From a virus, in the UHGV virus genome UHGV-0308199: a DNA stretch of 48,244 nucleotides. One strand, written 5' to 3'. Shown piece after piece: positions 1-48,244 of the stretch. Below the pieces are notes generated by a model that did not search any database, was not told where the DNA came from, and saw nothing but the letters and a program-made list of their open reading frames with translations. A program made the translations under genes and the position numbers. Numbering within the stretch: the stretch's first letter is position 1; every line of letters begins with the position of its first letter.

Positions 1-258
1 CAACAAACCTAATGCAGTCTTTAGTTTACAAATTGTTACATATATTATTCGTCAAATTTCATTATTATCAGAGATTAACAAGCATTGGCAAAGGTTGTCA
101 CTCAGTAATACTCACCATTATTAACTATTATTCACCATTATTTAGTATTCAAATTCTTTGAATGAGTTTGAAAGTGCCAGTCTTTACGTATTAATTCTTC
201 TGTGCAAGTATATATACACCCAATAGAGACTAATTAAGTCTTAGTATAAATATCTAAT

Positions 259-501
259 GTGAAGGACATAGCCATGAGCTTATTGCCTCGGGAAAACGCA
301 CCCCAAAAAAGATATAGACTTCTGAGAATATCAGAAGTGATTAATTTGACTGGCTTACCCAAGTCAACAATTTATCTAAAGATAAAGAATGATGAATTTC
401 CGAACCAAGTTTCTATCGGTTCTCGTTCTGTTGCATGGGTGGAGCATGAAGTTAATGAATGGATAGAGAAGAATATTCTCAATAGAAAATTAAACTCCTA
501 A
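259..501 (+). CDS. alpA: AlpA-family phage transcriptional regulator (HTH, excisionase-like)
   Basis: 80 aa; RLLRISEVINLTGLPKSTIYLKIKNDEFP...GSRSVAWVEHEVNEWI matches AlpA/Vis-type HTH pattern. Confidence 0.8.
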   Translation: MKDIAMSLLPRENAPQKRYRLLRISEVINLTGLPKSTIYLKIKNDEFPNQVSIGSRSVAWVEHEVNEWIEKNILNRKLNS

Positions 502-518
502 ATTGAGGTGGCAAATAT

Positions 519-1379
519 ATGGTTGACAATGTTTTTAAGAAGAAATTGGCATCAATTAAGAACGAACATGTGTCGGTGTTAGATAGTTACAAAGTAAGAT
601 CATTTAAAGAGACTCATAGCGACACGGCCTGTATTGTGCGTATTATTGAAATATATTCACTGAATAAGCTGCGAGCTAAAGGTGAAAAGCTGTATTCACT
701 TACGGGGTTAACAGTACCTGATACGGAAACTGTGGCGAATGAGATCAACCTGCTCCTGAGCCGTTATGCCCAGTTGTGTCGTCAGGAAGAGGAAGAGTTA
801 TCTTTCCGGCAGCGTGAAGTGACAAATGCGGAAGTTGCATGGAAAAGCACATTCTCAAAAAACGGCGTCAGTAGCATTGCTGAAGCCAAAACGAATAAAA
901 TGGGGCATGCTGAACGAGCGGATGCTGAACGGTATTACCATCTGGCTGTTTCCCGGTTGAATGAACAACATAGTCGATTGAGCACGATCAAGCTTTTGCC
1001 GGGAGTACTGGCCGATGAAGGAAACTACATTGGGAAGGGAATCGATAAGCGTTTACTGAATATATTTCCTCAATCCGGCCAGATCCCTGCTGATTTTATT
1101 TCTGTATTTAATGACAGTGACGTTGTCCGTGATATTAAATTTATTACTGATGCACTCAAGTCTTTATCTGATTCCGTGAGTGAAATTATTAGTCGTTGTA
1201 GCGTTCCAACTGATCGTTATGTATTAAATAACGGTGGAATGGCAAGAGCTATGGCTTACAGGGAGTACTATCGAGCAGATAATTATGTATTACGTTCAGT
1301 CGTAAGTGACCGGGATTATGTTGAGCATGTAATGAAATACAATCTGGTTACTGAGTACAAAAATAAAATCTTTTCTTAA
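519..1379 (+). CDS. hypothetical protein upstream of capsid-like gene
   Basis: 286 aa ORF, co-oriented, 17 nt after alpA; no motif recognised. Confidence 0.5.
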   Translation: MVDNVFKKKLASIKNEHVSVLDSYKVRSFKETHSDTACIVRIIEIYSLNKLRAKGEKLYSLTGLTVPDTETVANEINLLLSRYAQLCRQEEEELSFRQREVTNAEVAWKSTFSKNGVSSIAEAKTNKMGHAERADAERYYHLAVSRLNEQHSRLSTIKLLPGVLADEGNYIGKGIDKRLLNIFPQSGQIPADFISVFNDSDVVRDIKFITDALKSLSDSVSEIISRCSVPTDRYVLNNGGMARAMAYREYYRADNYVLRSVVSDRDYVEHVMKYNLVTEYKNKIFS

Positions 1380-1401
1380 ATACTTAAAAAGGTGAAAAAC
1401 T

Positions 1402-2406
1402 ATGTATGCCTTCAAAACTGAAAGGCCGGACGCAGCACGTCGTTATCATAATAAATTCGTCACTGGCACTAACTATCAGGAAGAATCAAACAGACGCTTT
1501 GCATTAAGCGAACCTACTGAAAATATACTGCGTACCTCAATTCTGGAATCCGGGTGGCTTATTAAAAATATTACCCTACGTGATGTTAACGCCGTGTCAG
1601 GTAATGCCGTCAATATTGGTGCCAGTGAACTGTATACCGGACGTGTGGATGGTGGCCGTTTCCACAAAAAAATGGCAATCAATGGTACGGAGTTCTTTCT
1701 GACAGAGACGGATACCTGCGCCCGGATCAGCTATTCCGATATGTCTCATATTTACCATACCGGCGTGCCGGATGAGTTTGAGAAAACGGTTGAGAGCTTT
1801 TTTGCCCAGGCATATGCGCTGGACATGCTGCGGGTCGGTTTCAACGGTGTGTCGATTGCAAATACTACAAACCCGGAAATCAATAAAAAAGGCGAGGATG
1901 TCAATATTGGCTGGCATGCACTGGCGAAAGCCTACGGGAACGGAAAGCAAATCATCTCTGAGCCTGTCACTCTGGGAGAGACTGGCACCTGGAAAAATAT
2001 TGATGCTCTGGCCAACCATCTGATTACAGAGCTTATTGCTGAGCAGTTTCGTGAAGATCCTCGTCTGGTTGTACTGGTTGGGGCAGAGCTGGCAGCACAT
2101 CAACGCCTGAAGTTATTTAATGCCGCAGACCGCCCGTCTGATGTGAATGCGGCACAGATGGCTACAAGTTCTGTTGCTGGCCGCTTTGCGTTTATTCCCC
2201 CGTTTATGCCGGGTAAGCGTCTGGCAGTAACGACGCTGGATAATCTGCATATTTACACTCAGGCGATAACACGCTGGTTTCGTGCTGAGTTTGATGATGA
2301 AAGCAGTGAATACGTGCATTCCTACCTGCGCAATGAAGGTTATGCACTCGGTGAACCTGAACTGTACGCGGCTGTTGATGAGTGCACCCTGACGTTTGCG
2401 GATTGA
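1402..2406 (+). CDS. P2-family major capsid protein (gpN)-like
   Basis: 334 aa; segments MLRVGFNGVS, DVNIGWHAL, EDPRLVVLVGAELAA, LDNLHIY fall in the same order as conserved blocks I recall from P2 gpN; from memory, not searched. Confidence 0.5.
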   Translation: MYAFKTERPDAARRYHNKFVTGTNYQEESNRRFALSEPTENILRTSILESGWLIKNITLRDVNAVSGNAVNIGASELYTGRVDGGRFHKKMAINGTEFFLTETDTCARISYSDMSHIYHTGVPDEFEKTVESFFAQAYALDMLRVGFNGVSIANTTNPEINKKGEDVNIGWHALAKAYGNGKQIISEPVTLGETGTWKNIDALANHLITELIAEQFREDPRLVVLVGAELAAHQRLKLFNAADRPSDVNAAQMATSSVAGRFAFIPPFMPGKRLAVTTLDNLHIYTQAITRWFRAEFDDESSEYVHSYLRNEGYALGEPELYAAVDECTLTFAD

Positions 2407-2419
2407 CTTAGCGACAGAA

Positions 2420-2446
2420 AGACCCGCTCAGAGGCGGGTCTCGTTT
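2420..2446 (+). terminator. hairpin after capsid-like gene (AGACCCGC-tcagag-GCGGGTCT, weak T tract)
   Basis: 8-bp stem immediately after the stop codon. Confidence 0.4.
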
Positions 2447-2544
2447 ACAGCATCAGGAAAAATGAAGAACTATTTTTAAGCAGAGGCTTAAGCATGCCAG
2501 CGTTAATTAATCCAGGCAATGATCAGTTTTCGGTTATAAATTTC

Positions 2545-2880
2545 TTGCCTCACCAGGAATGCGCGGGATATAGTTTAAAGGTTGCCGCAAAATCGGCAGC
2601 CGGGCGTAGGAACCCGTGTTATCTGAAGGCGATACTACACGCGCTAGGCGTGTTTTTTTGTGTCGCAGCTTTGACTCACCTAAAATTTATGGTGTGGTGG
2701 CTGATTGTATTTTTTTATTTTTTACGCCACATCATCAGAATTATGGTAGTCCAGGCGGGGCAGCTTTCGGGCTGGCCGGTATCCTTCAGAGCCGGTATTC
2801 CTACCCCCGTCTGGGCTACCACCCATGAGCGTAGGAACTCCGGTGGTAGCGTTACCCGCTATCTGAAGGAGGTTGCCATT
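2545..2880 (+). promoter_or_regulatory. structured leader: sigma70-like promoter (TTGCCT-18-TATAGT, 2545-2574), direct repeats GCGTAGGAAC...TATCTGAAGG (2604-2629 and 2829-2872) and an intrinsic terminator (2637-2660)
   Basis: Read directly; second repeat copy supplies GAAGGAGG RBS for the ATG at 2881; ORF-track ORF 2494..3084 is low-complexity over this stretch. Confidence 0.4.
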
Positions 2881-3084
2881 ATGGCTACAGTCCCTGCTTT
2901 ATCTCACCCTGAATTTACCTTTGTCTTTCTGGCTGTCCGCCGTACAGACCGTGATGCCCGTCCACGCCCTGTGCGTGTAATCGCAGAATGCGAGCATGCT
3001 GCACGCCTTAAACTTGCCACTGAATTTATCCTGAGCTTTGCTGCCCGTATCCCTGTGAAAAGAGCCGGGGAGGTGGTTGCATGA
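2881..3084 (+). CDS. small hypothetical protein (67 aa) downstream of the leader
   Basis: ATG at 2881 with GAAGGAGG RBS 9 nt upstream; in frame with 3' part of track ORF 2494..3084. Confidence 0.4.
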   Translation: MATVPALSHPEFTFVFLAVRRTDRDARPRPVRVIAECEHAARLKLATEFILSFAARIPVKRAGEVVA

Positions 3085-3317
3085 AATCCATGAATTTTAA
3101 GCAAGGCTGCATATTGAGTGAACAGGGGGAGAGTCGTCTGTTACGGGCGGCACTGGCCAGTGAGTTTCTTGCAGAGGTCTTGTCCGTGCCCACAGTGAAT
3201 GGAGCGAGAACTGTTTCAGCGGAAGGCGCTGCGGCTTTAGTGGCCTGTATTGCCGAACAACTGGATGGCGTTGTTAAGGAAACCAGCACAATTAAGGGAG
3301 TGATGCGCGATGAATAA
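3081..3317 (+). CDS. hypothetical protein
   Basis: 78 aa; start overlaps upstream stop (ATGA). Confidence 0.45.
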   Translation: MKSMNFKQGCILSEQGESRLLRAALASEFLAEVLSVPTVNGARTVSAEGAAALVACIAEQLDGVVKETSTIKGVMRDE

Positions 3318-3720
3318 TAATCAAAATTTAAAGGCGCATGCTTTACGAACAGCAGTCTTACGCTACTACATTGCTGATGCATTCATTTCCTTAATGGTGC
3401 GTGTTCATAATGAACCTGTTTATATTGAAGATGGCGAACGAATAGAACTCTCCCACGAAAAAGTGGTGAGTAATATTATTTACCATATTGAAATGCCGTG
3501 GGTGAATGAGTTTGGGGCTGATGCTGGTTGCATACTGGCCGCAGAGAAACTGGAAAAAATGCTTAAACCAGGCTTTATGTCAGAAAATATTCGCCTGTCA
3601 GTTTTTGGTGTCACAGAGATGCGTGAGGTTTACCGGGATATTATTTTCGGAGCACCTGATGGCGAACTACCCGAAGGTTTTGAATTTGTGAAGCCGGAAG
3701 GTCAGGAGGTGCTGCTGTGA
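3310..3720 (+). CDS. hypothetical protein
   Basis: 136 aa; stop overlaps primase GTG start. Confidence 0.5.
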   Translation: MNNNQNLKAHALRTAVLRYYIADAFISLMVRVHNEPVYIEDGERIELSHEKVVSNIIYHIEMPWVNEFGADAGCILAAEKLEKMLKPGFMSENIRLSVFGVTEMREVYRDIIFGAPDGELPEGFEFVKPEGQEVLL

Positions 3721-6404
3721 AAACACCGTCTGTATCCACGATTTCCGGAGCTGCAATTGGGCGCTGGCCTTATATCCTGTCAGCATTAGGTATTAAAGTA
3801 CCGTCCGCAGGACATCATGGGGCTTGCCCTGCCTGTGGTGGAAAAGATCGTTTTCGACTGGACGATAAAGCGGGGCGAGGGACGTGGTTTTGTAATCAGT
3901 GCGGTCATGGCGATGGTCTTGATCTGGTTCGTCTGGTGACAGGAAGAAAGATAAAAGAAGTCGCCGGGATGGTATCTGAGGCGCTTGCATTACCAGAAAT
4001 ACAGGAGAAGCCCGCATTGCCAGCCAGGAAAAAGGCCGCAGGAAAAGAAGCGGGCGCGGAGCGATATACCAGACTCAGACAGCAGTCCTGCAATGGTGAG
4101 CCGGTCTATCTGACAAATAAGAGCTTACACGGGTATTCACTTCCCTTGCTGTCACAGCCTTTGAATCTGGCCGGAATAACATTTTCCACCGGTTCATTAC
4201 TGCTGCCTTTGACGGATATTTCCGGGAATATTACTGGTGGCCAGCTTATCAATCCTGACGGGGATAAAAGTCTGCTGCCCGGTAGCCAGCTGTCTGGCGC
4301 ATTCATTGCCCTGACCGATATACCCGCTGAAACACCTGAACAGGTGATTATCACTGAGGGTTTTGCCACGGCGCTTACCGTCAGTCTGCTGACTGAAGGA
4401 TGGATCGTGGCGGCTGTCGCTGCCACCAATTTACTGAAGGTGACGGAGCAGATCCGAAAACGCTGGCCGGAAACCCGGATCATTCTGGCCGGAGATAATG
4501 ATCTGGCTGACGGCAAAGAAAACACCGGGCGTATTCAGGCAGAGAAAGCCGCCAAAGCGGTGGATGGCTGGGTAACGCTCCCTCCGGTACGCCATAAGGC
4601 TGACTGGGATGATTATCGGCAGGAAGTGGGGAAAGAACGGGCGAGAGATGCCTTTCGTGAAGAAATGACGCTGCATGGCAAAGGGCAGACCCGTTTACCA
4701 GAAGGGTTCCGGCTGACAAAAGAATATTTGTGGTACGACAAGCTGGTTAATAAGTCTGATGGTGATACAGAGATACGTAATATCAAAATTTGCAGTCCGT
4801 TGCGGGTGACGGCAATCACCAGTGATGCTGATGGAAGTAATTACGGGCGTTTGCTGGAATGGGAAGATACCAACGGAAACAGCCGTAAATGGGCAATGCC
4901 GATGGAGATGCTGGGCGGTAGCGGGGAAGAACTGCGCCGCGTTCTGCTGGTTAACGGGCTTTCTTACATCAACATTAACGGCATGGCCAGAGCATTCCTG
5001 ATGGAATATATCTCGCTGTGTAAACCGGACAGAAAAGTAACCTGTGTGAATAAAACTGGCTGGCACGGCGGGGTTTACGTTCTCCAGGATGAAGTGATAG
5101 GGCGCGAAGCCCAGTCAGTCATCTTACAAACATCGAGTGTGCAGGGGCGTGATTTTCGTGTCAGCGGCACATCAGAGGGCTGGCGTGAAAATATAGGCCG
5201 TTATTGCATAAAGAATGCCCGTCTTGCCTTTGCGGTGAGTCTGGCATTTGCTGCCCCCCTTCTGAAACTGGTTGGTATCGGCGGTGGAGGTTATCACCTC
5301 AAAGGGGAATCCACAGACGGTAAAACCACGACGATGAAAGTGGCTGCATCAGTATGTGGTGGAACAGATTTCTGGCATACGTGGCGGGCGACGGGGAATG
5401 CCTTAGAAGGAACGGCGAGCCGCCGCAATGATGCCACGCTGATGCTGGATGAAATCCGGGAGGTTGACGGCAGGGAGGCGGGAAATATCGCTTATATGCT
5501 GGCTAACGGGCAGGGCAAAGCCAGAGCCAGAACAGATGGTTCGGTAAGGGAAACCAACCGCTGGAATCTGTTGTTTCTGTCTACCGGGGAACTGTCACTG
5601 GTAGAGCATGCGGCAAGCGCCGGGGAACGTACGTATGCCGGGGTTGAGGTCAGAATGATCCAGATCCCAAGCGATTCGGGCAAGTATGGCGTGTTTGAAG
5701 AACTTCATGGCTTCAGTAGCGGGAAAACCCTGGCTGAGCATCTTGAGCAGCACGTAGCGCATTATCATGGTGCACCATTCCGCGACTGGCTGTATTGCCT
5801 GACCGCTGATCTGCCGGAACTGACCAGTCAGGCGAAAGCCTTATTGAAAGAGTATACCCGAAGGCTGACGCCGGAAAATGCCGGGAATCAGGTTGGCCGG
5901 GCTGTTACCCGTTTTGCTCTGGTTGCGATGGCCGGGGAGCTGGCCACAAAAGCGGGCATCACAGGATGGCCGGAGGGAGAGGCCTTTCGTGCCGCTCAAA
6001 GCTGTCTGGCTGCATGGATGGCTGACCGGGGCCATACAGCTAATCAGGAAGATAAAGCGGCACTTGAACAGGTTCGGGACTTCATGACGCGTAATCAGTT
6101 CAGTCGGTTTGCTGACTGGAATGACGACAGGAACCGGCCTGTTTCAATGATGGGATTCAGAAAAGTCGATAAAGGAGACAACGTGACAGAGCCGGTTGTG
6201 ACGTTCTACGTTCTCCCGTCAGGCTGGAAGGAGATCTGTAAGGGATTTGACTCGCGTAAGGTGGCCAGGTTGTGTGTGGACGCGGGCTGGCTGAAACCCG
6301 GTGAAGATGGCCGGACGCAAAACAGCATTCGCCTGCCAGAAATAGGGCTTAAACGTGTGTACCAGTTCAATACACAGGTACTGGGAAGCGCTGAACCTGA
6401 GTGA
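3717..6404 (+). CDS. P4 alpha-type primase-helicase (zinc-binding, TOPRIM, P-loop NTPase)
   Basis: 895 aa; CPACGG...CNQCGH zinc motif, ITEG and AGDND TOPRIM motifs, Walker A GESTDGKTT; GTG start. Confidence 0.9.
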   Translation: MKTPSVSTISGAAIGRWPYILSALGIKVPSAGHHGACPACGGKDRFRLDDKAGRGTWFCNQCGHGDGLDLVRLVTGRKIKEVAGMVSEALALPEIQEKPALPARKKAAGKEAGAERYTRLRQQSCNGEPVYLTNKSLHGYSLPLLSQPLNLAGITFSTGSLLLPLTDISGNITGGQLINPDGDKSLLPGSQLSGAFIALTDIPAETPEQVIITEGFATALTVSLLTEGWIVAAVAATNLLKVTEQIRKRWPETRIILAGDNDLADGKENTGRIQAEKAAKAVDGWVTLPPVRHKADWDDYRQEVGKERARDAFREEMTLHGKGQTRLPEGFRLTKEYLWYDKLVNKSDGDTEIRNIKICSPLRVTAITSDADGSNYGRLLEWEDTNGNSRKWAMPMEMLGGSGEELRRVLLVNGLSYININGMARAFLMEYISLCKPDRKVTCVNKTGWHGGVYVLQDEVIGREAQSVILQTSSVQGRDFRVSGTSEGWRENIGRYCIKNARLAFAVSLAFAAPLLKLVGIGGGGYHLKGESTDGKTTTMKVAASVCGGTDFWHTWRATGNALEGTASRRNDATLMLDEIREVDGREAGNIAYMLANGQGKARARTDGSVRETNRWNLLFLSTGELSLVEHAASAGERTYAGVEVRMIQIPSDSGKYGVFEELHGFSSGKTLAEHLEQHVAHYHGAPFRDWLYCLTADLPELTSQAKALLKEYTRRLTPENAGNQVGRAVTRFALVAMAGELATKAGITGWPEGEAFRAAQSCLAAWMADRGHTANQEDKAALEQVRDFMTRNQFSRFADWNDDRNRPVSMMGFRKVDKGDNVTEPVVTFYVLPSGWKEICKGFDSRKVARLCVDAGWLKPGEDGRTQNSIRLPEIGLKRVYQFNTQVLGSAEPE

Positions 6405-6419
6405 TTATCGCGTGAGTCT

Positions 6420-6625
6420 TATTTTTATGAGGTAACACTGGTAACAGAGGTAACACCCGTTACTGATGCGGTTCTTCAGTGTTACCAGTCAAAAATACTG
6501 ACTGGTAACAGAGGTAACAAAAAATGGTGTGTTACCACGCGTTACCTCTTGATTTTGCTAACTGGTAACAGATTAAATCCTTTTAAATCAATAGCGTTAC
6601 ACGTGTTACCAGTGTTACACGTTCA
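6420..6625. repeat. iteron array, candidate replication origin
   Basis: At least 10 copies of GGTAACA / TGTTACC in both orientations within ~200 bp just after the primase gene. Confidence 0.7.
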
Positions 6626-6686
6626 GAACAAGAGGTAGGGATCCAAATCCCTTCTTCTGGCGGGCAACAGTATAGGGCACAGAACG

Positions 6687-6959
6687 ATGAAGATGATGAG
6701 AATGTACTGCCCCACATGTCAGGCAGTAGCACGGATAGGTAAAACAAACAGGAAACACCCACAACTGTACGATGTGTACTGCTATTGCTCTAATGTGGAG
6801 TGCGGTCACTCGTTTGTGATGAATGTTGCTTTCTCCCATTCCGTTAGTCCAAGCGCGCTGAACGGGCAGGGAAGGGTTAAAGAGCTGATTGATGCAATTC
6901 CACCCGAGGAACGGGAAAAGGCTTTAAAGTTGCTGCTGGCTGCGCAAAAGAATGGGTAA
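6687..6959 (+). CDS. ogr: Ogr/Delta-family zinc-finger late-gene activator
   Basis: 90 aa; CPTCQ...CYCSNVECGHSF C2-C2 zinc finger typical of P2 Ogr / P4 Delta. Confidence 0.8.
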   Translation: MKMMRMYCPTCQAVARIGKTNRKHPQLYDVYCYCSNVECGHSFVMNVAFSHSVSPSALNGQGRVKELIDAIPPEEREKALKLLLAAQKNG

Positions 6960-7638
6960 AGTATGCGTCGGGAATGGCCGATCTGTTCCCGGAACCTGAA
7001 CACAGGATTTCAGTTTATACGGTCATAAAATTATTATTTTTCAACTGGTTATCTTCTTCATGTTTCACAAACCTTCATAAAATCACACACCTAAAATTAA
7101 TTATCCATTTAATATCATAGAGTTGCGTATTCAGGCCATAGATTCGACGGACAGTAAAACTGAAAAAAAATGAATTTCTTTTCATTCTTTTCAGTTCCTG
7201 TATCGCAGTACATCTCGAGGACTGGCACGGACTGGCGGTATCGTTTGTAAAAAATCCAGGCTGAAAATTTTTAGTGATATGAAAACCGCAGGCGGGTGCG
7301 GTGTAGTGCCGTTTTGGTCTGTCGAGCGTATATTTTCCTTTTTCACGATTGCTGCATATCAAAACGAATGTGCAGATATCAGGCCGTGTCAAACCGTGAA
7401 TCGTGGAGCCTAAATGCCCAAACTACGTTTGTAGACCTAGCTAGGGGAAGGTTTCCACATATACTGCTACCTATCTTCCAGTCGCTGGTGAGGATCAAGG
7501 TAAGCTAACTGGTGAACAAGAAAAGTACTTTCGTATCTTGCGTACTCGTTTTTTTTGATTAGTATGTACAGGTAGTAACTGGATGGTGAGAATTCGTCAT
7601 AACTTATCAAATTGCATGATGTTTATAGAGTATGAGTA

Positions 7639-8520
7639 ATGAGTCATAATAAAAAGGAATATGCTAAATTTTTCCGTCGCCCCATTTTTTCATCCTTAGC
7701 AAAAGGTAAGGATATTTCGGATTTATTTGGGAGTTTTGATTCTTACTGCTATGAAACACTGTTTTCAAACAATGATAATAATGAACATGAGATTTCACTA
7801 AGGGATTTATTTACATCATTATATGATTTTTTGCGTCTGAATTATAGAAATGAATATGTTTATAAGACAGCACTTGTCAATAAAATAATATTCGGTAAGC
7901 ACAGCCCAAAAACAAGTTCGTCGTCCATAGAGTTACCAATTAAAAACTCTATAGTGGATGTTGCGGTGTTTAATGGTACGTCTACAGCTTACGAGATTAA
8001 GACAGAGTATGATTCACCAAAAAGGTTGATTACTCAAGCCCCTGATTATTTGGATGTTTTTGATAAAGTGTATATAGTTACACATCCAGAGTATGCAAGT
8101 AAATATTGTGCTTTAAATCTCCCCAGAGTGGGAGTTATGGTTTTGAATAAAAAAGATCAATTGAGTGTCATTAAGGAGGCAGATTCAAATATTGATTATA
8201 TTAAAAGTGACAGCTTGTTTTCAGTTCTTAGAAAGGAAGAGTTCTTAGCTATAATAGAAGATTACACTTCAACTAAAATAAATATGCCTAACGGATTGGT
8301 TTATGAATATTGTAAAGAGATATTCATGCAGATGCCATTAAACATAGCAAATAAATACTTTATCTCTGCTATGAAAAAAAGATGTAACGATAAAGTTTTT
8401 TTGGATTATATTTATTCTCTTCCAGCATGTTTACGTGTTTTAGGTTATGCAACACCATTATCAAGAAAGCAAAAAGAATTCATCATGAATTTGATGGATG
8501 TAAAAATTAAAATTTGTTGA
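7639..8520 (+). CDS. cargo protein A, predicted PD-(D/E)xK-fold nuclease-like (candidate defense component)
   Basis: 293 aa; ~30-33% GC by eye; IVDVAVFNGTSTAYEIKTE gives D-x12-E-x-K signature. Confidence 0.7.
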   Translation: MSHNKKEYAKFFRRPIFSSLAKGKDISDLFGSFDSYCYETLFSNNDNNEHEISLRDLFTSLYDFLRLNYRNEYVYKTALVNKIIFGKHSPKTSSSSIELPIKNSIVDVAVFNGTSTAYEIKTEYDSPKRLITQAPDYLDVFDKVYIVTHPEYASKYCALNLPRVGVMVLNKKDQLSVIKEADSNIDYIKSDSLFSVLRKEEFLAIIEDYTSTKINMPNGLVYEYCKEIFMQMPLNIANKYFISAMKKRCNDKVFLDYIYSLPACLRVLGYATPLSRKQKEFIMNLMDVKIKIC

Positions 8521-8541
8521 TATCCTCAGGAGTTGTAAGTT

Positions 8542-9492
8542 ATGTATAGCCCATATTTGTATGCGAGAAGTACAGAGTTATTATGCCTTAGGGACCTCGT
8601 TGCGAAGGGAGTTAGCCTAAATGGTCTGCTACCAATTTTAGAACCAATTAACGTCAATACGAGAAATTTATTAACATGTTTAAATGTTTGGAATTCTGAC
8701 ATAATTGTTATCCTTAATCCTTATCAGGAAGATTTTTCTTCACACAATAACGTCTTAACTTTAAATCAAAATTTATCAAGTGTATTAACAAATAAAAATA
8801 ATATCATCTCTGGATATCTTATTCAGCCCAATACAACGATTAATGATATTAATAATTGGTTGAATGCTAACTTAAATAGACGAGTTGCACTTCTATATGA
8901 TAATCCATCATTATCCAACTCTGATATTCAGTTGTTGGCGACAAATCAATTGATTAGTTATCATGTTGTTTTAAATAATAAAATGCTTCCTAATCAGTGC
9001 GCTCTTCTTCCTTTGTCGAAGTTAATTATTATTAGCGATAACTTTAGAAAGTTAGCAAAAAATGCTGATTATAATGGGCCGGAACTTTTCACGCACGCAC
9101 ATCAATTCGTGGGACAAAATTACTTAGGATTTGGCGATTATACAATTACTGGCCAGGTACTAGATCTTGGAGGTGGTCAACCTTCTGCTGTTGCCGCACA
9201 TTTGGTGTTCAAGAATTTACAAGCGAATACAGTTTGGATTCGTCATTTTGTATCAAGCAACACGCAACGAGGAAGTTCAAATGTTACTGCAAAATTTTTA
9301 GATGTTTCAGATCAAATTACAAATCTTGTTCCCCAACATCCAACCCAGTTTGGCAGCAACATTGGTCTTAACTATTATTATTACAATAGTCAACCAACTG
9401 TAAGGCATTTCCCTGGGTTGCCAAAAAACAAACAGTATCAAATTACTCACCATATTTGTTTCATGCTGGATTTAATAGCAGGTCGTATTTAA
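8542..9492 (+). CDS. cargo protein B, unknown function (candidate defense component)
   Basis: 316 aa, N/L/Q-rich, ~28% GC; AGGAG RBS; 21-nt gap from gene A; 3' end overlaps convergent int by 21 nt; no Walker A/B seen. Confidence 0.7.
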   Translation: MYSPYLYARSTELLCLRDLVAKGVSLNGLLPILEPINVNTRNLLTCLNVWNSDIIVILNPYQEDFSSHNNVLTLNQNLSSVLTNKNNIISGYLIQPNTTINDINNWLNANLNRRVALLYDNPSLSNSDIQLLATNQLISYHVVLNNKMLPNQCALLPLSKLIIISDNFRKLAKNADYNGPELFTHAHQFVGQNYLGFGDYTITGQVLDLGGGQPSAVAAHLVFKNLQANTVWIRHFVSSNTQRGSSNVTAKFLDVSDQITNLVPQHPTQFGSNIGLNYYYYNSQPTVRHFPGLPKNKQYQITHHICFMLDLIAGRI

Positions 9493-10647
9493 TAAGCTAG
9501 CGTACCATTCCATCATTACTTGTCGATCTTTAATATATTGCGCATGATTGTAAGTACCTCGAATAGAGTTCTTATCAACATGCGCAAGCTGCATTTCAAT
9601 CCAGGCACTTTCAAACCCATGCTCATGCAAGATGGTGCTCATGGTATGCCTGAAACCGTGACCCGTTAACCGACCGTGATAACCCAGTAGTTTTATCACT
9701 TTGTTGATGCTGGCTTCGCTCATTGGTTTACTGACGTCATTCCGGCCAGGGAAAACGAGGCTGTAATTCCCTGTTATTTCTTGCAGCTTTTTCAGGATAT
9801 TGATCGCCTGAGTTGATAACGGAACCAGATGGGGGCGGCGTTTCTTCATCCGTTCTTTGGGGATCTCCCATAAGGCATTATCTAAATCAAACTCAGCCCA
9901 TTCCGCTGCACGTAGTTCAATTGTTCGCACGCCTGTTAGCATCAACAGCTGCGTGGCGTATTTGGTAACTAAACTGCCCTGATAGTTATCCAGAGCATTA
10001 ACGAACTCGGGCAACTCGCTTTCAGTCAGGAACGGGAAGTGTTGGGTTTTAGGTTTGTTGAGTGCGATAGCTAAATCGGGTGCAAAATTATACTTTGCTC
10101 TACCAGTGGCAACAGCATAACGAAGCACTTCACCACAGCGGCGGCGGATCTTACTGGTTTGCTCTAGCGCACCTCTTTTCTCTATTTTTTGCAGGACGGT
10201 TAGCAGTTCTAATGGTTCAATCTGCTCAATTGGGCGCTGGCCGATAAAAGGAAAAATATCCTTTTCCATACAATTGAGAACCTCTTTTGCATAACCCTCT
10301 GACCAGGTGGCTTTTTTCGATGAGTGCCATTCTCTGGCCACAGACTCAAAGCTGTTCTCATGCGCGAACTGCAAAGCAATCTTATCTGCTTTTCTGGCTT
10401 CACTTGGGTTTATCCCGTTGGCTAACATCGAACGCGCTTCATCACGTTTGGTACGTGCCTGTGCCAACGACACATCGCCATATACGCCAAAGGAAATCAT
10501 CTTAGGCTTACCTGCAAAGCGATAGCGAAAACGCCAGCCTTTACTGCCCGCTGTGTCGATCAGGAGTGATAGCCCCATACCATCGTTAAGCGTATAGGGT
10601 TTGTCCTTCGGTTTTGCTCTTTTTATTTGGATGTCAGATAGCAGCAT
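9472..10647 (-). CDS. int: tyrosine integrase, P4/CP4-57 family
   Basis: N-terminus LSDIQIKRAKPKDKPYTLNDGMGLSLLI...WRFRYRF (arm-binding type); C-terminus HGFRHT...LAH...GTYNHAQY catalytic motifs; start taken at internal Met (10647). Confidence 0.9.
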   Translation of the reverse strand: MLLSDIQIKRAKPKDKPYTLNDGMGLSLLIDTAGSKGWRFRYRFAGKPKMISFGVYGDVSLAQARTKRDEARSMLANGINPSEARKADKIALQFAHENSFESVAREWHSSKKATWSEGYAKEVLNCMEKDIFPFIGQRPIEQIEPLELLTVLQKIEKRGALEQTSKIRRRCGEVLRYAVATGRAKYNFAPDLAIALNKPKTQHFPFLTESELPEFVNALDNYQGSLVTKYATQLLMLTGVRTIELRAAEWAEFDLDNALWEIPKERMKKRRPHLVPLSTQAINILKKLQEITGNYSLVFPGRNDVSKPMSEASINKVIKLLGYHGRLTGHGFRHTMSTILHEHGFESAWIEMQLAHVDKNSIRGTYNHAQYIKDRQVMMEWYASLLNTTCY

Positions 10648-10895
10648 GTGTATAGAAAAAAGATCGAACTCAGTTATACACAATGTTATACGCAAAGATG
10701 TATAGATTCCATTAGAAATAATGGTACTTTGCTGGACGAGTATAAGGAGATGATATCAGTTAAAACAGTGAGTTATGGAATTAATTGAACTTAGTGAGAA
10801 GTGTTCATGGTGTCCCCTGCAGACATCTACTTGAAGCGGCAGGGGATTGATTGGAATGGTGTTTTTTAGATGTGAGAAATATTTTACCCGCTATT

Positions 10896-11096
10896 TTACC
10901 CATTGGCGCGGCTTAAGAGCTTATTTTTAAATTCACAATGGTCACGATATAACCATCTTGCTCGTCCGTGGATAACTTTGGCTTTAGGAAGGTCGCCGGA
11001 CTTAATCCGGTCATAGATGAAGGTTTTACCAAAGCCAGTATCGGCCATGATGAATTTCAAATCAACCAGTGAATCAGGCTGTAGTTCGTGTTGCAT
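10896..11096 (-). CDS. AlpA-family excisionase/regulator (Xis/Vis-like), upstream of int
   Basis: 66 aa; FIMADTGFGKTFIYDRIKSGDLPKAKVIHGRARWLY HTH; GGAGA RBS. Confidence 0.75.
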   Translation of the reverse strand: MQHELQPDSLVDLKFIMADTGFGKTFIYDRIKSGDLPKAKVIHGRARWLYRDHCEFKNKLLSRANG

Positions 11097-11141
11097 GAGT
11101 GCTATCTCCGAATAGGGAATCGAACCTGCAAATCAGGCAAT

Positions 11142-11160
11142 AAAAAACCGCCATCAGGCG
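11142..11160 (-). terminator. intrinsic terminator on minus strand (CGCC-tgat-GGCG + T6)
   Basis: Hairpin followed by TTTTTT on the minus strand, upstream of the AlpA-like gene. Confidence 0.5.
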
Positions 11161-11392
11161 TCTTGGTGTTCTTTCAGTTCTTCAATTCGAATATTGGTTA
11201 CGTCTGCATGCGCTATCTGCGCCCATATCATCCAGTGGTTATAGCAGTCGTTGATGTCCTCTGCTTCGATAACCCTGTCGAATGGCTCTCCATTCCATTC
11301 ACCAGTGACTCGGAAGTGCATTTATCATCTCCATAAAACAAAACCCGCCGTAGCGAGTTCAGATAAAAGAAATCCCCGCGAGTGCGAGGATG

Positions 11393-11677
11393 TTATTCAT
11401 TGCCGATATTCACCTTTATCGCGAACACCTTTACCGGTTTATCACCGAAGTGTGGATGTATGATTGTCTTGATTTCATACCCGTCATACGGGACGTCAAT
11501 TCTACGGCTGGAATCGTCGCGCTTCGGATATCCCTTTGTGATAATCAGACGGTCATATTCCCGGAACATAATTCGCTTATTCCAGTAGTCATTGCACAGG
11601 CGATACTCTTCCGTTTTCTCCCCGCGAATCATGGCATCGAAGTATTCACCTTTGACGGCAAGTTGCAGGTTAGCCAC
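11393..11677 (-). CDS. hypothetical early-left protein
   Basis: 94 aa ORF in leftward operon. Confidence 0.45.
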   Translation of the reverse strand: MANLQLAVKGEYFDAMIRGEKTEEYRLCNDYWNKRIMFREYDRLIITKGYPKRDDSSRRIDVPYDGYEIKTIIHPHFGDKPVKVFAIKVNIGNE

Positions 11678-11946
11678 GACCTTCCTCCTTTGGCTTGTGA
11701 ATTTGTATCGTCATGCCGCTTTGAGTGGTGACTACAATGACAGAACCAGGCTGTTAAGATTGAATGCTTCGTAAAACGAATCCAATGCCAGTGCTTTTTT
11801 ATTCTTTCTGTTCCACCAACGCCATCCCTTGCTACAGGCTACACTGACAATCCACTGCCCACTCCTGTAAGCCATATAAAACCAGATGAGCAAAACCTGA
11901 AGGAATGCTATCCAGTCAATAATCGTATATTTCGCGAAGGAGTCCA

Positions 11947-12489
11947 TCACTTCACCTCCTGCTGCGGTGCTGCTGGCATTTCACGCCAGTGCGTAACTGA
12001 GTGCGGATCCGGGTATTCGGTGCCATCATCCCAGCGATTGCCATTCCACATTGCAGACCACATCTCACCGTCTTCATACATGACCATTACCGGAATTAAC
12101 TTATCCGGCATTCGCTCACTACAGCTTATCCAACCATCCGGAGTTACCGGAGTTGGTCCATCGAATTCGGGCATGTCAGGACCTTTTCTGATAGCTTTAG
12201 CCAGCTCCAGCGGGTCATCGTAAAGCCAGTCGCCAGTTTGTGGGTGATTTGCTTCTGCAAGCTGCGCAGCCCATTCAAGACCATCTTTTTGACCTTGGAG
12301 ATAATCAAGCGGCAACTCTTCATGATTACTTGCAGGTTCGGCACTATCAGCTTCGCGCCGCTTCTGTAGCTCTGCTGCCATTGCTCTCACGACTTCAACT
12401 GGTGCCCTTGCAGCAAACTCTATGTTGGTGATCAGCTCATTAAGATATTGCTCGCCTGGATACTGTTTCTTATCGGTTATAGTGGTCAT
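11947..12489 (-). CDS. hypothetical phage protein (DUF551-like C-terminus)
   Basis: 180 aa; C-terminal W/D-rich segment resembles DUF551 of lambdoid phages (tentative). Confidence 0.5.
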   Translation of the reverse strand: MTTITDKKQYPGEQYLNELITNIEFAARAPVEVVRAMAAELQKRREADSAEPASNHEELPLDYLQGQKDGLEWAAQLAEANHPQTGDWLYDDPLELAKAIRKGPDMPEFDGPTPVTPDGWISCSERMPDKLIPVMVMYEDGEMWSAMWNGNRWDDGTEYPDPHSVTHWREMPAAPQQEVK

Positions 12490-28375: not shown

Positions 28376-28450
28376 GGGTCAGTCGTATAAAGGTCATTAC
28401 GGAAGGCTGTTAACCTTCTTATCGTGGTTCGAGTCCACGCTGTCCCGCCA
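28376..28450 (+). tRNA. tRNA, anticodon GUU (Asn) by manual fold
   Basis: Cloverleaf: acceptor 6/7 bp, anticodon stem GAAGG/CCTTC, loop CTGTTAA, T-arm CGTGG-TTCGAGT-CCACG, encoded CCA. Confidence 0.55.
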
Positions 28451-28455
28451 AATAT

Positions 28456-28531
28456 GCTGGTTTAGCTCCAATGGTAGAGCAGTCGCCTTGTAAGCGAATG
28501 GGTAGCGGTTCAAGTCCGTTAACCAGCACCA
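28456..28531 (+). tRNA. tRNA, anticodon UGU (Thr) by manual fold
   Basis: Acceptor GCTGGTT/AACCAGC 7/7, D-arm GCTC-CAATGGTA-GAGC, anticodon loop CTTGTAA, T-arm AGCGG-TTCAAGT-CCGTT, encoded CCA. Confidence 0.65.
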
Positions 28532-45877: not shown

Positions 45878-48244
45878 ATGACAGACATTACAGCCAATGT
45901 TGTAGTGAGTATGCCTTCGCAACTTTTCACTATGGCGCGTTCTTTTAAAGCAGTAGCCAACGGCAAAATTTATATCGGAAAAATTGACACTGACCCGGTA
46001 AGTCCAGAAAACCAGATTCAGGTTTATGTAGAGAACGAAGACGGCTCTCATGTTCCTGTTTCGCAACCAATCATCATTAACGCTGCTGGATATCCGGTAT
46101 ATAACGGGCAGATTGCCAAATTCGTAACTGTGCAAGGCCATTCTATGGCTGTATATGATGCATATGGCACTCAGCAGTTTTATTTTCCAAATGTATTAAA
46201 ATACGATCCTGATCAACTTAGGGAAGAGATTTTTTCTGACCGTATGCTGTTAATTACGCCACAGCATTATGGGGCGAAAGGTGACGGTGTTAACGATGAT
46301 ACGGTGGCATTTATTGCAGCAGCAAATGCTCTTGGAGATGGTGGAAAGTTATATATTCCAACTGGAACATATAATTTAATTGGACCAGTTAATATACCAC
46401 CAGTGAATATGTGTGGCGATGGACAGGGTAAAACGGTTATTGTGTTTGATAATACCACATCACCAAAAGATGGATTTGTTTTCGCTGCACCAACTAAGCA
46501 TGATGTTGAATTTGGTTTAAGTCACCTTACAATTAAAAGCAAAGGCGGGAATGGCGCTAATGCCATATATACCCCAAGAGGTGTCGGGCTTAATCATCTA
46601 AGGCCAAAACCAACATTTAGATTTTTATCTTTCTGTTCTGAGACTGCAAATATTGATTCTGATGAATTCGCACAGAAGTACGGTTGGGAATGGTCTTTTA
46701 ACTGTGGTGATAGTTGGCAGTTCACAATCGAACGCATTGATGCTGTTGGATGTTATCAGATAGCCAAAAGTTATAATGAACAGTTCCTTGATGGATTCAT
46801 TCGCACCGCTCCAGAAGAAGGTATTTTATCCATGCGTGTGAGTGATATCACAACGCATAACGTTGCCAATTTTTTTGAAATTAAGCAGAAGACATATTTC
46901 AATCTTACCAATGTCGATGTTGCTAGATCCCTAAACGGTGTTTATGATGCTCAGGATAGAGTGTTCGAATCAAATCGCTATGCGTATGGTGAGTCTATAT
47001 GGACAAACGTTATCATTAATAGCCAGCTTCACCCTATTAATCTTGATAACAGATTTCTTTTGATTGCTAATGGACTAGCCATACATAGAGCAGGAGGAGG
47101 ATATGACCACGGAAATGAATGGGTAGGAATTAGACTCATCAGACCAAGAGTGTGCACCATTAATGGATTGGAGATTAGCAGTGCATCAGGTTATACGACG
47201 ACTAAAAAAGGAATAATTATAGATGGTGGCGATGCAAACAACTTCATTAATGTAAGTTTTGGTACATTGGATATTGGAGCTCAGATAGGAGTAACATCAT
47301 CAATACATGGAGCAAATCAGGCGACAAACTTTTCCAATATTAGCATTAATGCTAATGTCACAACATTACTTAACATACAAAACGCACGTGGTTTTAATTG
47401 CAGCCAGTATACTGCATCTCCTCTCTACACTCTTGCCAATTTAATGGTCAATGATGACAAAGTAAATAACACATTTACACTTACAAATATTGATGGCAAA
47501 AATAATTACACTGATAACTCTATTTATCTTTATAATCAGGAAGCATCAGAAGATACCAAAAGATGGAGGATAGATACTCGTACCGGATACACACTATCCA
47601 CTCAGAAAGACAATGGTGCACAAGGTAATAACGCTATCATTATTCGTCGCAGTGGAATAATTGTAGACTCTATAGAATTACGCACAAAAAACGATTCTGG
47701 CGGATATCTTCTTCATACATCACCTGAAACTCATTTTTCTGGCCTTATAAAACCAACTGTTGATAATGTTAACTCAAACGGAACATCAGCATTTCGATGG
47801 TCACAGGTATACGCTGGTACTGGCAGTATCAACACGTCGAATGAAGAGCTGAAATTGCGTATTGAGGCTGACGAGAAAACAACAGAATCAGAGCGTCTTG
47901 CTGCGCTTGAAATAAAGAAAAATATCTGGAGGTTTAAATTTAAAGATGCAGTAAAGATCAAGAGTGATGGCGCTCGGATTCATTTCGGTGTTGGTGCACA
48001 AACTGTAGGTAATATTCTCAGAAAATACGGTCTTGACCCTAATAACTATGCGTTCTGGTGTTATGATGAATGGGATGATATTTATGCTCCAGAGGTATTA
48101 ATTAGGAGTGTTAAAAACAATGAAACAGGAGAGTGGTACGACGAGGAATATTACACAGGAAGGCAGGTTATTATTAAACCTGCTGGTTATCAGTATGGTA
48201 TCAGATACGAGGAACTTCTGATGTTTATTCTTATGTTTATTTAA
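45878..48244 (+). CDS. tailspike: P22-type head-binding N-terminus + pectate-lyase-like beta-helix + C-terminal intramolecular-chaperone domain
   Basis: N-terminus [11 protein letters not shown]...[21 protein letters not shown]...VLKYDPDQ matches recalled P22 gp9; [18 protein letters not shown] motif; C-terminus resembles endosialidase-chaperone domain; stop at 48242-48244. Confidence 0.85.

Follow-up and report, generated by a model that had tools for sequence, protein, structure and literature searches.

The window analysed here is a 48,244-nt stretch of the virus genome UHGV-0308199, and its left part has the gene content of a satellite:

1 to 10806: predicted P4-like satellite of ~11 kb (AlpA, P2-family capsid, Ash, primase-helicase, Ogr/Delta, sce7726/sce7725 cargo, integrase)
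259 to 501, plus strand: AlpA-family DNA-binding gene, putative excisionase/regulator, at the satellite end distal to the integrase (PF05930 Phage_AlpA, E=6e-20)
3717 to 6404: alpha-type primase-helicase (Zn_Ribbon_Prim, Toprim_3 and DUF927 in Pfam)
6687 to 6959: Ogr_Delta (Pfam)
8542 to 9492, plus strand: cargo gene of the sce7725 family, convergent with the satellite integrase gene
9472 to 10647, minus strand: satellite tyrosine integrase of the P4/IntS type, 391 aa (Arm-DNA-bind_3, Phage_int_M and Phage_integrase in Pfam)

The satellite encodes a major capsid protein of the P2 family (PF05125, E=1e-66), and no match to the Psu or Sid families was found among the satellite proteins scanned against Pfam; for this reason, the element is labelled P4-like rather than a strict member of the P4 family. 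The minus-strand integrase reading frame spans 9472-10695, and its start was placed at the ATG at 10647, in line with RefSeq on identical DNA and an alignment with IntS. By BLASTP, the integrase shares 45% identity with K-12 IntS (E=4e-124). The cargo gene overlaps the integrase stop by 21 nt and therefore leaves no space for an att site at the integrase 3' end, as the first-pass annotation of this DNA had pointed out. This sce7725 gene has no match in Pfam or PADLOC. The sce7726 gene has one PADLOC match, "cll".

Positions 1-10822 of the window differ from the phage-free strain SK1144 by 1 mismatch in 10,822 nt. In SK1144, the same integrase adjoins an intact argW, its gene lying 160 nt downstream of the tRNA gene; the homologue of 259-501 is annotated as an HTH regulator, and the satellite is flanked by a 20-bp repeat, ATGGTGTCCCCTGCAGGAAT. 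The satellite has a P4-type integrase at a tRNA 3' end with flanking direct repeats. Beyond the integrase gene, the window carries the following features:

10648 to 10806, no strand: int-side att arm of the satellite, where the int promoter is presumed to lie
10648 to 10654 (minus), 10675 to 10681 (plus) and 10687 to 10693 (plus): TATACRC repeats, candidate arm-type Int sites
10807 to 10822, no strand: 16-nt att core ATGGTGTCCCCTGCAG, reverse complement of the argW 3' end, at the satellite-phage junction
10823 to 10919, no strand: torI-side att arm of the phage (attR arm), overlapping the torI 3' end
10896 to 11096, minus strand: torI, excisionase (RDF) of the P22-like phage, 66 aa, 66/66 identical to K-12 TorI
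11116 to 11131, minus strand: argW T-arm copied exactly over 16 nt (TTGCAGGTTCGATTCC when read in the tRNA sense), with 19 nt between it and the torI ATG downstream
11154 to 11321, minus strand: early-left ORF of 55 aa, conserved in P22-like phages and annotated in CUS-3, Kapi1, HF4s and G749
11341 to 11360 and 11372 to 11391, minus strand: two tandem terminator-like hairpins, downstream of an ASCH-domain gene (11393-11677)
45878 to 48244, plus strand: phage tailspike, with its stop codon at the very end of the window

The open reading frames, the gap, the 3' overlap, the T-loop-like motif, the terminators and the flanking gene types of the first-pass annotation are all present, with Lederbergvirus early genes on the right flank. 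It had treated the 66-aa gene and the integrase gene as an AlpA-like/int pair more likely owned by the satellite, and had offered two intervals for the att site. The first of these, the gap at 10648-10895, was confirmed to be non-coding and contains the core. The core ATGGTGTCCCCTGCAG occurs only once in the window, even when up to 3 mismatches are allowed. Its reverse complement is the published core of KplE1/HK620/Sf6, the 3' end of the tRNA-Arg gene argW. The KplE1 core, published as CTGCAGGGGACACCAT (PMC2951348), matches the window core exactly, and the annotated Sf6 attP core also matches it.

The breakpoints fall on either side of this core. Identity to the satellite and argW sequence of SK1144 stops at 10822, identity to the free phage HF4s starts at 10807, and homology to the free phages HF4s, Kapi1, phiv205-1 and Sf6 begins at 10807. 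In a 6-way alignment, the 16-nt core is invariant and the arms are swapped on each side. The suggestion that satellite and prophage lie in tandem at one site is thus borne out, the site being argW.

On the satellite side, 10648-10806 matches SK1144 satellite DNA at every position and resembles neither phage attP nor the dsdC flank of the chromosome. The TATACRC repeat occurs 11 times in L001 against 4.85 expected, and five of these eleven copies are no more than 200 bp from one of the two att cores of the satellite, which makes the repeats candidates for arm-type Int sites. A 9-mer, GTTATACAC, was considered as a satellite arm motif and set aside, as it is not enriched by itself, whereas the shorter TATACRC is enriched and clustered near the satellite att sites. 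On the phage side, the torI-side arm holds two TTTTACCC repeats, at 10882 and 10894, and matches HF4s attP, K-12 KplE1 attR and S88 CUS-3-like attR. A 135-bp attR substrate works in vitro, and its right-hand primer maps to 10900-10919 (PMC3509656); a TAAA motif is reportedly shared by the P' sites of IntS on attL (PMC2951348).

The left end of the window was compared with the junction region, as the first-pass annotation had proposed. Between 1-520 and 10641-11400, the sole shared repeat is a 12-mer, ATGATGAATTTC, at 389 and 11047; it lies in coding sequence on opposite coding strands and was judged to be a chance match. The second core of the satellite lies outside the window, about 190 bp left of its start.

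The 66-aa protein has no match to any Pfam family, including AlpA (PF05930), at E<=1e-3, and none in NCBIfam. It is TorI, and the Phage_AlpA profile is matched by satellite gene 259-501; the AlpA assignment was dropped. The torI homologue is annotated as an excisionase in HF4s and Kapi1, and the torI stop lies 73 nt from the core. The two genes might nevertheless form one xis-int operon owned by the satellite, with a P22-like prophage that has no recombination genes of its own. They are indeed co-oriented across a gap of 250 bp, in the same geometry as xis-attP-int of free phages, and a terminator consensus scan, a pattern match that gave 3 sites in the region where 0.7 would be expected, placed none between torI and the satellite int. 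However, torI is found with the same flanks in the virion-derived phage genomes HF4s, Kapi1 and Sf6, and also adjoins dsdC, again with these flanks, in satellite-free lysogens, whereas in phage-free carriers of the satellite, SK1144 among them, torI is missing and argW takes its place. Of 5,426 complete E. coli genomes, 421 contain the satellite and only 13 the satellite-TorI junction (8 more have a variant satellite arm). A full att core stands between the two genes, the satellite has its own AlpA gene, and the phage encodes an IntS of its own past the tailspike. We regard a satellite-owned operon as extremely improbable.

The apparent AlpA-like/int pair is instead best read, from these alignments, as the boundary of two mobile elements, with the integrase on the satellite side and TorI on the phage side. 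Satellite ownership stands for the integrase, which adjoins argW in SK1144, and falls for the 66-aa gene, which is the phage TorI; nor are the two a pair, as the att core separates them and torI is absent from SK1144. We also considered whether TorI serves the satellite. The motif YRGWTCGY, taken from published TorI site positions, occurs four times in the K-12 attL arm and zero times in both satellite arms, which gives this role no support.

The second proposed att interval, 11100-11390, contains the T-loop-like motif. The sequence GGAATCGAACCTGCAA at 11116-11131 matches the argW T-arm at 16 of 16 positions; it is found a single time in the window, where 0.02 occurrences would be expected when up to 2 mismatches are tolerated. 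Neither ARAGORN nor Rfam, also at a permissive Rfam threshold, found a tRNA in 10500-11500; the local fold at the motif is not significant (z = -1.36) and only 16 nt of argW are present, in agreement with the first-pass remark that the motif does not fold into a tRNA. The same 16-mer lies upstream of torI in K-12 KplE1, HF4s, Kapi1, phiv205-1 and G749, and in the S88 sequence too. In the Sf6 record, it falls within the putative promoter "pI" and the boundary sequence bsq2; a promoter scan of 10500-11500 found no sigma-70-like site, so the "pI" annotation has no independent support. The adjoining 55-aa ORF at 11154-11321 has neither a Pfam nor an NCBIfam match.

Since the CUS-3 record labels this 16-mer "attR core" and is bounded by exactly this sequence ("attL/attR core"), the region can also be explained by three elements, in which torI and the core were left by a decayed KplE1-like prophage between the satellite and a phage that recombined at the 16-mer. 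It is consistent with this explanation that the K-12 KplE1 homology stops ~10 nt beyond the 16-mer, which is an exact argW fragment. However, HF4s, Kapi1, Sf6 and a 39.8-kb contig carry torI, core and 16-mer contiguously, with int across the core, and the S88 CUS-3-like prophage has torI and the 16-nt core beyond the "attR core" of the record. The left end of CUS-3 reads as T-arm, CTGCAGGGGACACCA and the HF4s int-side arm, i.e., argW followed by a core-type attL, and the 135-bp attR that recombines in vitro does not include the 16-mer (PMC3509656). Three elements are thus very improbable. The T-arm 16-mer is DNA from the phage interior that all TorI modules conserve, and not a crossover site, which removes 11100-11390 as an att location. 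It probably derives, as a relic, from an ancestral tRNA-identity block that was longer; a quite unlikely extension of this is that it marks the insertion of the xis cassette into an ancestral 31-nt tRNA-identity block of attP. When phage records were searched for an uninterrupted 3' half of argW, which might represent an ancestral attP, most of those retrieved were prophage-delimited and included the host tRNA.

The window ends at the tailspike stop, and the phage int, attL and argW therefore lie just outside it. The prophage is without an integrase inside the window, as the first-pass annotation had noted, and the assignment of the phage integrase and argW comes from an identical public contig and from relatives rather than from the window itself. 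The ENA contig k141_107787 encodes the exact tailspike protein at coordinates equal to those of the window, and it has 0 mismatches to the window over 8,367 nt. Past 48244, it continues with a hexapeptide O-acetyltransferase, a 385-aa IntS-type integrase, an int-side arm and a second core. A contig of the isolate GCA_050093565.1 (2 mismatches in 8,367 nt) carries, in one piece, yfdC-argW-intS-acetyltransferase-tailspike, then TorI-satellite int and the satellite; argW is intact on it, and its two cores lie ~39.6 kb apart. In three complete genomes that share the junction, the order is tailspike-(cargo)-intS-argW-yfdC, and the integrase lies directly beside the tailspike in two of the three. 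An IntS-type integrase of the kind that is co-oriented with argW and just downstream of it, with attL overlapping the int promoter, is thus absent from the window and found on the identical contig, in the isolate and in the three genomes. The first-pass annotation had named a second integrase just right of the tailspike, the sign of an independently bounded prophage, as a finding that would speak against its reading, and this is what the identical contig and the relatives carry.

Other routes to the right junction were less informative. The last 54 nt of the window, scanned against genome contigs, gave no match, and the complete genomes with the closest tailspike were discarded, as they have their phages at other loci (bioA/ybhB, or by another integrase island), which reflects mosaicism.

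The contig k141_107787 itself ends in an attP-type junction, where the int-side arm and the core are followed by 97 nt of torI-side arm and not by argW; the right chromosomal junction of that sample is therefore not directly visible. Alongside the integrated left junction, the sample would have contained the phage either as a tandem double lysogen or as DNA that was excised or replicating. It is doubtful, but a possibility to be kept in mind, that the left junction is real while the linear order is not that of one simple prophage and reflects a tandem double lysogen or an assembly of mixed integrated and excised DNA. Such an order would agree with the contig end (intS-core-torI arm rather than intS-core-argW) and with a second sample of the same series, which yielded a phage-length contig of 39,784 nt (L028) with torI-attP-intS. 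The near-identical isolate, however, carries the prophage just once, flanked by argW and the satellite within the same contig, and neither the ownership of the genes nor the position of att would be affected.

Taken together, the window very probably covers the dsdC side of the argW integration hotspot of E. coli, with two independent elements stacked head-to-tail. Sequence comparison places a P4-like satellite to the left of the core and a P22-like (Lederbergvirus) phage to the right of it; the phage would be ~39.6 kb long, with a recombination module of the KplE1/HK620/Sf6 type. A literature search for argW, satellite and tandem returned no match. The tandem arrangement of satellite and phage at argW is ordinary biology that has been described already, and no new mechanism is implied.

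The satellite would have inserted first at the argW 3' end, leaving its integrase directly after the tRNA and its AlpA gene at the opposite end of the element. The P22-like phage would have entered later at the regenerated argW 3' end, by an IntS-mediated crossover in the 16-nt core, and would have displaced the satellite from the tRNA. As attP lies between int and xis in this phage family, integration splits the two genes, which is why IntS and TorI are seen apart: TorI would come to lie at the prophage end beside the satellite integrase, in the same orientation, mimicking a xis-int operon, with IntS ~39 kb away, past the tailspike and adjoining the intact argW. Three direct copies of the core would then be present, on the dsdC side, at 10807-10822 and at argW, and either element could in principle excise singly and leave a legitimate site for the other. 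Satellite before phage is the order that we favour; either order yields the same product, so the sequence gives no proof of it. In six genomes, the order is the opposite, with an older decayed IntS/TorI element distal and the satellite adjoining argW, which fits stacking at the tRNA-proximal site.

The stacking also leaves the early-left (pL) unit of the phage, which ends in torI, in a position where it may point across the hybrid att site into the co-oriented satellite int. Cross-talk at the tandem, in which induction of the P22-like phage switches on the non-cognate satellite integrase, with mixed Int recombination and a xis-cassette relic, is quite unlikely. If it did occur, phage induction would activate the integrase of a P4-like satellite that does not naturally parasitize that phage, and the three identical cores could permit mixed IntS/satellite-Int recombination, leading to co-excision or shuffling of elements at argW.

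These results are useful mainly for annotation. Prophages with the KplE1/HK620/Sf6 module show an "orphan" excisionase at one end and the integrase at the other, and a neighbouring integrase-first element can give the false look of a single xis-int operon. Recognition of the 16-nt argW core fixes the boundaries of both elements, both of which have complete sets of recombination genes, and successive stacking at the tRNA-proximal site would explain the variability of the argW-dsdC region.

The closest described system is the KplE1 (CPS-53) module of E. coli K-12, which consists of IntS, TorI and attL/attR at argW (Panis, Mejean, Ansaldi; PMC2951348, PMC3509656). Its core and TorI are identical to those of the window, its torI-side arm is near-identical to ~10 nt beyond the T-arm 16-mer, and it likewise has the RDF at one prophage end and the integrase by argW at the other. 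KplE1 is a 10-kb remnant, whereas the module in the window belongs to a full-length P22-like phage, and the host-side flank of its attR is the satellite and not dsdC. The need for IntS, TorI and IHF in excision comes from experiments on KplE1/HK620 substrates only (PMC2951348, PMC3509656). Excision and IntS/TorI activity in the elements described here are putative; the attP-type junctions in contigs are consistent with such activity and are not proof of it.

In Sf6, HK620, HF4s and Kapi1, the attP region reads int, arm, 16-nt core, arm and xis, followed by the T-arm 16-mer ("pI", bsq2) and the early-left genes, with 95-97% identity to the window. The xis-attP-int order on one strand is seen in the free phages HF4s and Sf6 and on the 39.8-kb metagenome contig. 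The window differs from these Lederbergvirus attP regions in that a satellite int-side arm replaces the int-side half of attP, because its phage is integrated. The CUS-3 prophage of E. coli K1 (CP000711) has the same argW site, int gene length (1158 nt) and early-left genes as the window phage. Its record takes the T-arm 16-mer repeat as its limits and so leaves out torI and the 16-nt core, which the S88 CUS-3-like prophage does contain; the CUS-3 reference record was probably delimited at the wrong repeat and hence lacks its excisionase gene.

The satellite resembles P4-like satellites and islands with the tRNA-then-integrase ("STI") layout, in which the integrase is co-oriented with the tRNA and immediately downstream of it. 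It also shares with P4-like satellites an att site that overlaps the int promoter region, the P4 alpha-type primase, Ogr/Delta and AlpA, and it differs from them in its P2-family major capsid gene and in the missing Psu/Sid match among its Pfam-scanned proteins. Despite only 45% identity between the two enzymes, the satellite Int uses the same core as IntS.

All the features that the first-pass annotation had described at the junction of the satellite and the P22-like prophage (integrase ORF, gap, 66-aa ORF, overlap, T-loop-like motif and hairpins) were recovered in place.

Features of the satellite–prophage junction
8542-9492, convergent with the integrase: cargo gene, overlapping the integrase stop by 21 nt
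9472-10695, minus strand: mechanical extent of the satellite integrase ORF from the ORF call
9472-10647, minus strand: satellite integrase, 391 aa, from ATG 10647, the annotated and alignment-supported start
between the integrase and the 66-aa ORF: gap of 250 bp
10896-11096, minus strand: 66-aa ORF (TorI)
11341-11391, minus strand: two terminator-like hairpins from a consensus scan

Because the cargo gene overlaps the integrase stop, the 3' end of the integrase leaves no room for any site. Rfam gave nothing credible in 10500-11500, and ARAGORN, run on the whole window, found tRNAs only at 28376-28531, where adjoining Asn-GTT and Thr-TGT genes lie on the plus strand inside the P22-like prophage.

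The protein encoded at 10896-11096 matches K-12 TorI at 66/66 residues, which identifies it as TorI, and it has no AlpA match in Pfam. Its gene, with the same flanks, recurs in three free phages (HF4s, Kapi1, Sf6), in the K-12 prophage remnant KplE1, and beside dsdC in satellite-free lysogens; satellite carriers without the phage, SK1144 among them, lack it and have argW (tRNA-Arg) at that position. The gene at 9472-10647 encodes a tyrosine recombinase of the P4/IntS type (45% identity to IntS). It travels with the satellite, whose own AlpA-family gene lies at 259-501. The satellite is present in 421 of 5,426 complete genomes and the satellite–TorI junction in 13, with 8 more carrying a variant arm. 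These distributions, together with the satellite's own AlpA gene, indicate that the apparent excisionase–integrase pair is a coincidental juxtaposition, the integrase being the satellite's and the excisionase the phage's. The assignment of the whole pair to the satellite thus held for the integrase and failed for the excisionase.

When 9000-12000 was compared by megablast with complete E. coli genomes, many 100%-identity matches ended at 10822 and were followed by tRNA-Arg, and homology to phage genomes (HF4s, phiv205-1, Kapi1, Sf6) began at 10807. SK1144 has an intact argW and, 160 nt downstream of it and in the same orientation, the same integrase; the entire satellite lies between dsdC and argW there, flanked by the 20-bp repeat ATGGTGTCCCCTGCAGGAAT. 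Positions 1-10822 differ from SK1144 at 1 position and identity stops at 10822; identity to the virion-derived phage HF4s starts at 10807. A six-way alignment of the window, SK1144, the HF4s attP, the K-12 KplE1 attR, the attR of a CUS-3-like prophage in S88, and G749 revealed an arm swap around the invariant 16-mer ATGGTGTCCCCTGCAG. The Sf6 record annotates this 16-mer as its attP core, and its reverse complement is the KplE1 core published as CTGCAGGGGACACCAT (PMC2951348). This core occurs once in the window, even with 3 mismatches allowed, and its position at 10807-10822, with the homology breakpoints there, agrees with the gap 10648-10895, one of the two candidate att locations of the first-pass annotation. 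Three direct cores are found, on the dsdC side, at 10807-10822 and at argW. The satellite's other core copy lies ~190 bp left of position 1, which is why the comparison of the window's left end with the junction, proposed by the first-pass annotation, yielded nothing meaningful.

The satellite's distal att arm contains a (CCCAGC)n hexanucleotide microsatellite of ~11 units, directly left of position 1 of the window (L001 2935-3002). The window, and with it the assembled contig, starts directly after this repeat, which probably caused the assembly break and could be phase-variable. We also observed that the satellite AlpA gene (389-400) and torI (11047-11058) share the 12-mer ATGATGAATTTC on opposite coding strands, which we judged coincidental (chance alone would give ~0.05 such matches).

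A second candidate att location had been suggested in 11100-11390; within it, at 11116-11131, GGAATCGAACCTGCAA exactly repeats 16 nt of the argW T-arm. This 16-mer directly adjoins the core in the tRNA, and in the phage 293 nt, including torI, lie in between. All the modules examined, K-12 KplE1 and virion-derived genomes among them, have it upstream of torI; it is therefore internal phage DNA, so that this second location was not upheld. An attR of 135 bp that is active in recombination in vitro extends to ~10919, without the 16-mer (PMC3509656). The Sf6 record labels the stretch 'pI', a putative promoter, and has the boundary sequence bsq2 end there; a consensus scan detected no promoter in it. 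The CUS-3 GenBank record, whose left end is argW followed by an IntS-type arm, takes the 16-mer as the 'attL/attR core' and stops before torI. CUS-3 (CP000711; L002 1-16, L009 1-30) is bounded by this T-arm repeat and not by the IntS core, and for that reason torI and the true attR are omitted; in the S88 CUS-3-like prophage (L012 2140-2600), torI and the core lie ~300 bp past the end of the CUS-3 record. We read the 16-mer as a conserved relic, which may derive from a longer block of identity to the tRNA, divided by acquisition of the xis cassette.

HF4s and Sf6 carry, on one strand, int, ~160 nt, the core, 73 nt and xis, and attP in this phage family lies between int and xis. The organisation of the KplE1 module has been described as unusual, with attL overlapping the intS promoter (PMC2951348). 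Integration splits int and xis to opposite prophage ends, and the pair-like look of the junction arises because attP sits between them. The window's last codon is the tailspike stop codon. The ENA contig k141_107787 (ERZ27316650; 50,558 nt), retrieved by the exact tailspike protein, has the tailspike at the same coordinates and is identical over 8,367 nt, and is thus evidently the contig from which the window was taken; past the tailspike it encodes a hexapeptide O-acetyltransferase and an IntS-type integrase of 385 aa (minus strand), followed by the int-side arm and a second core at 50446-50461, 39,639 nt from the first. On a single contig, the isolate GCA_050093565.1 (2 mismatches to the window in 8,367 nt) reads yfdC-argW-intS-acetyltransferase-tailspike ... 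TorI-satellite int-satellite, with argW intact by ARAGORN. G749, ST131 strain 4993 and Ecol_276, complete genomes that share this junction, read tailspike-(cargo)-intS-argW-yfdC; their tailspikes differ, and the integrase is directly beside the tailspike in two of the three. The first-pass annotation had named a further integrase immediately to the right of the tailspike as the finding that would refute its reading, and such an integrase is present in k141_107787, in GCA_050093565.1 and in the complete genomes. Each of the two elements has a complete set of integrase and RDF-type gene.

The GCA_050093565.1 prophage matches 1954-11753 without gaps and is out of register from 11754, reflecting an indel or mosaic replacement in its early-left region. 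The identical cassette of 788-aa tailspike and acetyltransferase also occurs in P22-like prophages elsewhere (L016-L019, L021, L022; L006; L007), next to torT/torR/torCA, ybhB/bioA or a further integrase island, which shows free reassortment of tail and recombination modules.

After its second core, k141_107787 continues with 97 nt of the torI-side arm, not argW, forming an attP-type junction of intS arm, core and torI arm (50446-50558; L023 10569-10681). A second sample of the series yielded a 39,784-nt phage-length contig (ERZ27264764 k141_39336, L028) with torI-attP-intS. The assembled sequences suggest that the sample held, besides the integrated left junction, either phage DNA that was excised, replicating or packaged, or else a double lysogen in tandem. 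The attP-type junction lends in-silico support to the excised form for which PCR had been proposed, and leaves gene ownership and att position unchanged.

The two elements are integrated in tandem at one site, as the first-pass annotation had suggested. We infer that the satellite was resident first, because it is widespread and nearly invariant and the junction phages are diverse; the phage would then have integrated at the regenerated argW 3' end, displacing the satellite outward. Reverse stacking occurs in 6 complete genomes. In strain D6 (L015 3600-25200) the order is dsdC-torI-decayed IntS element-intS-core-satellite-argW, which fits the newest element being tRNA-proximal. Genes for a diguanylate cyclase, a hydrolase and an AraC regulator lie in the decayed element. 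Either element could excise alone, leaving a legitimate site for the other. The TorI-site pattern, taken from published positions, was not found in the satellite arms, so that a role of TorI on the satellite is unsupported; transcription may read through from torI into the satellite int, which points the same way.

Between ogr/delta and int, the cargo position in P4-like elements, lies the sce7726/sce7725 gene pair (7639-9492). sce7726 matches the PADLOC model 'cll' (E=1e-18) and, in public contigs, has a precomputed Pfam Phage_P4_cII match; sce7725 had no match in Pfam or PADLOC. Taken together, the first-pass annotation was right about the gap and the tandem integration, and wrong about the excisionase's owner and the second att location. 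In gene content the satellite departs from classical P4, as no Psu or Sid match was found among the satellite proteins scanned against Pfam and it encodes its own P2-family major capsid protein (1402-2406; PF05125, E=1e-66). The recombination module at the junction is well characterised, and the hotspot in which it lies is a common one.
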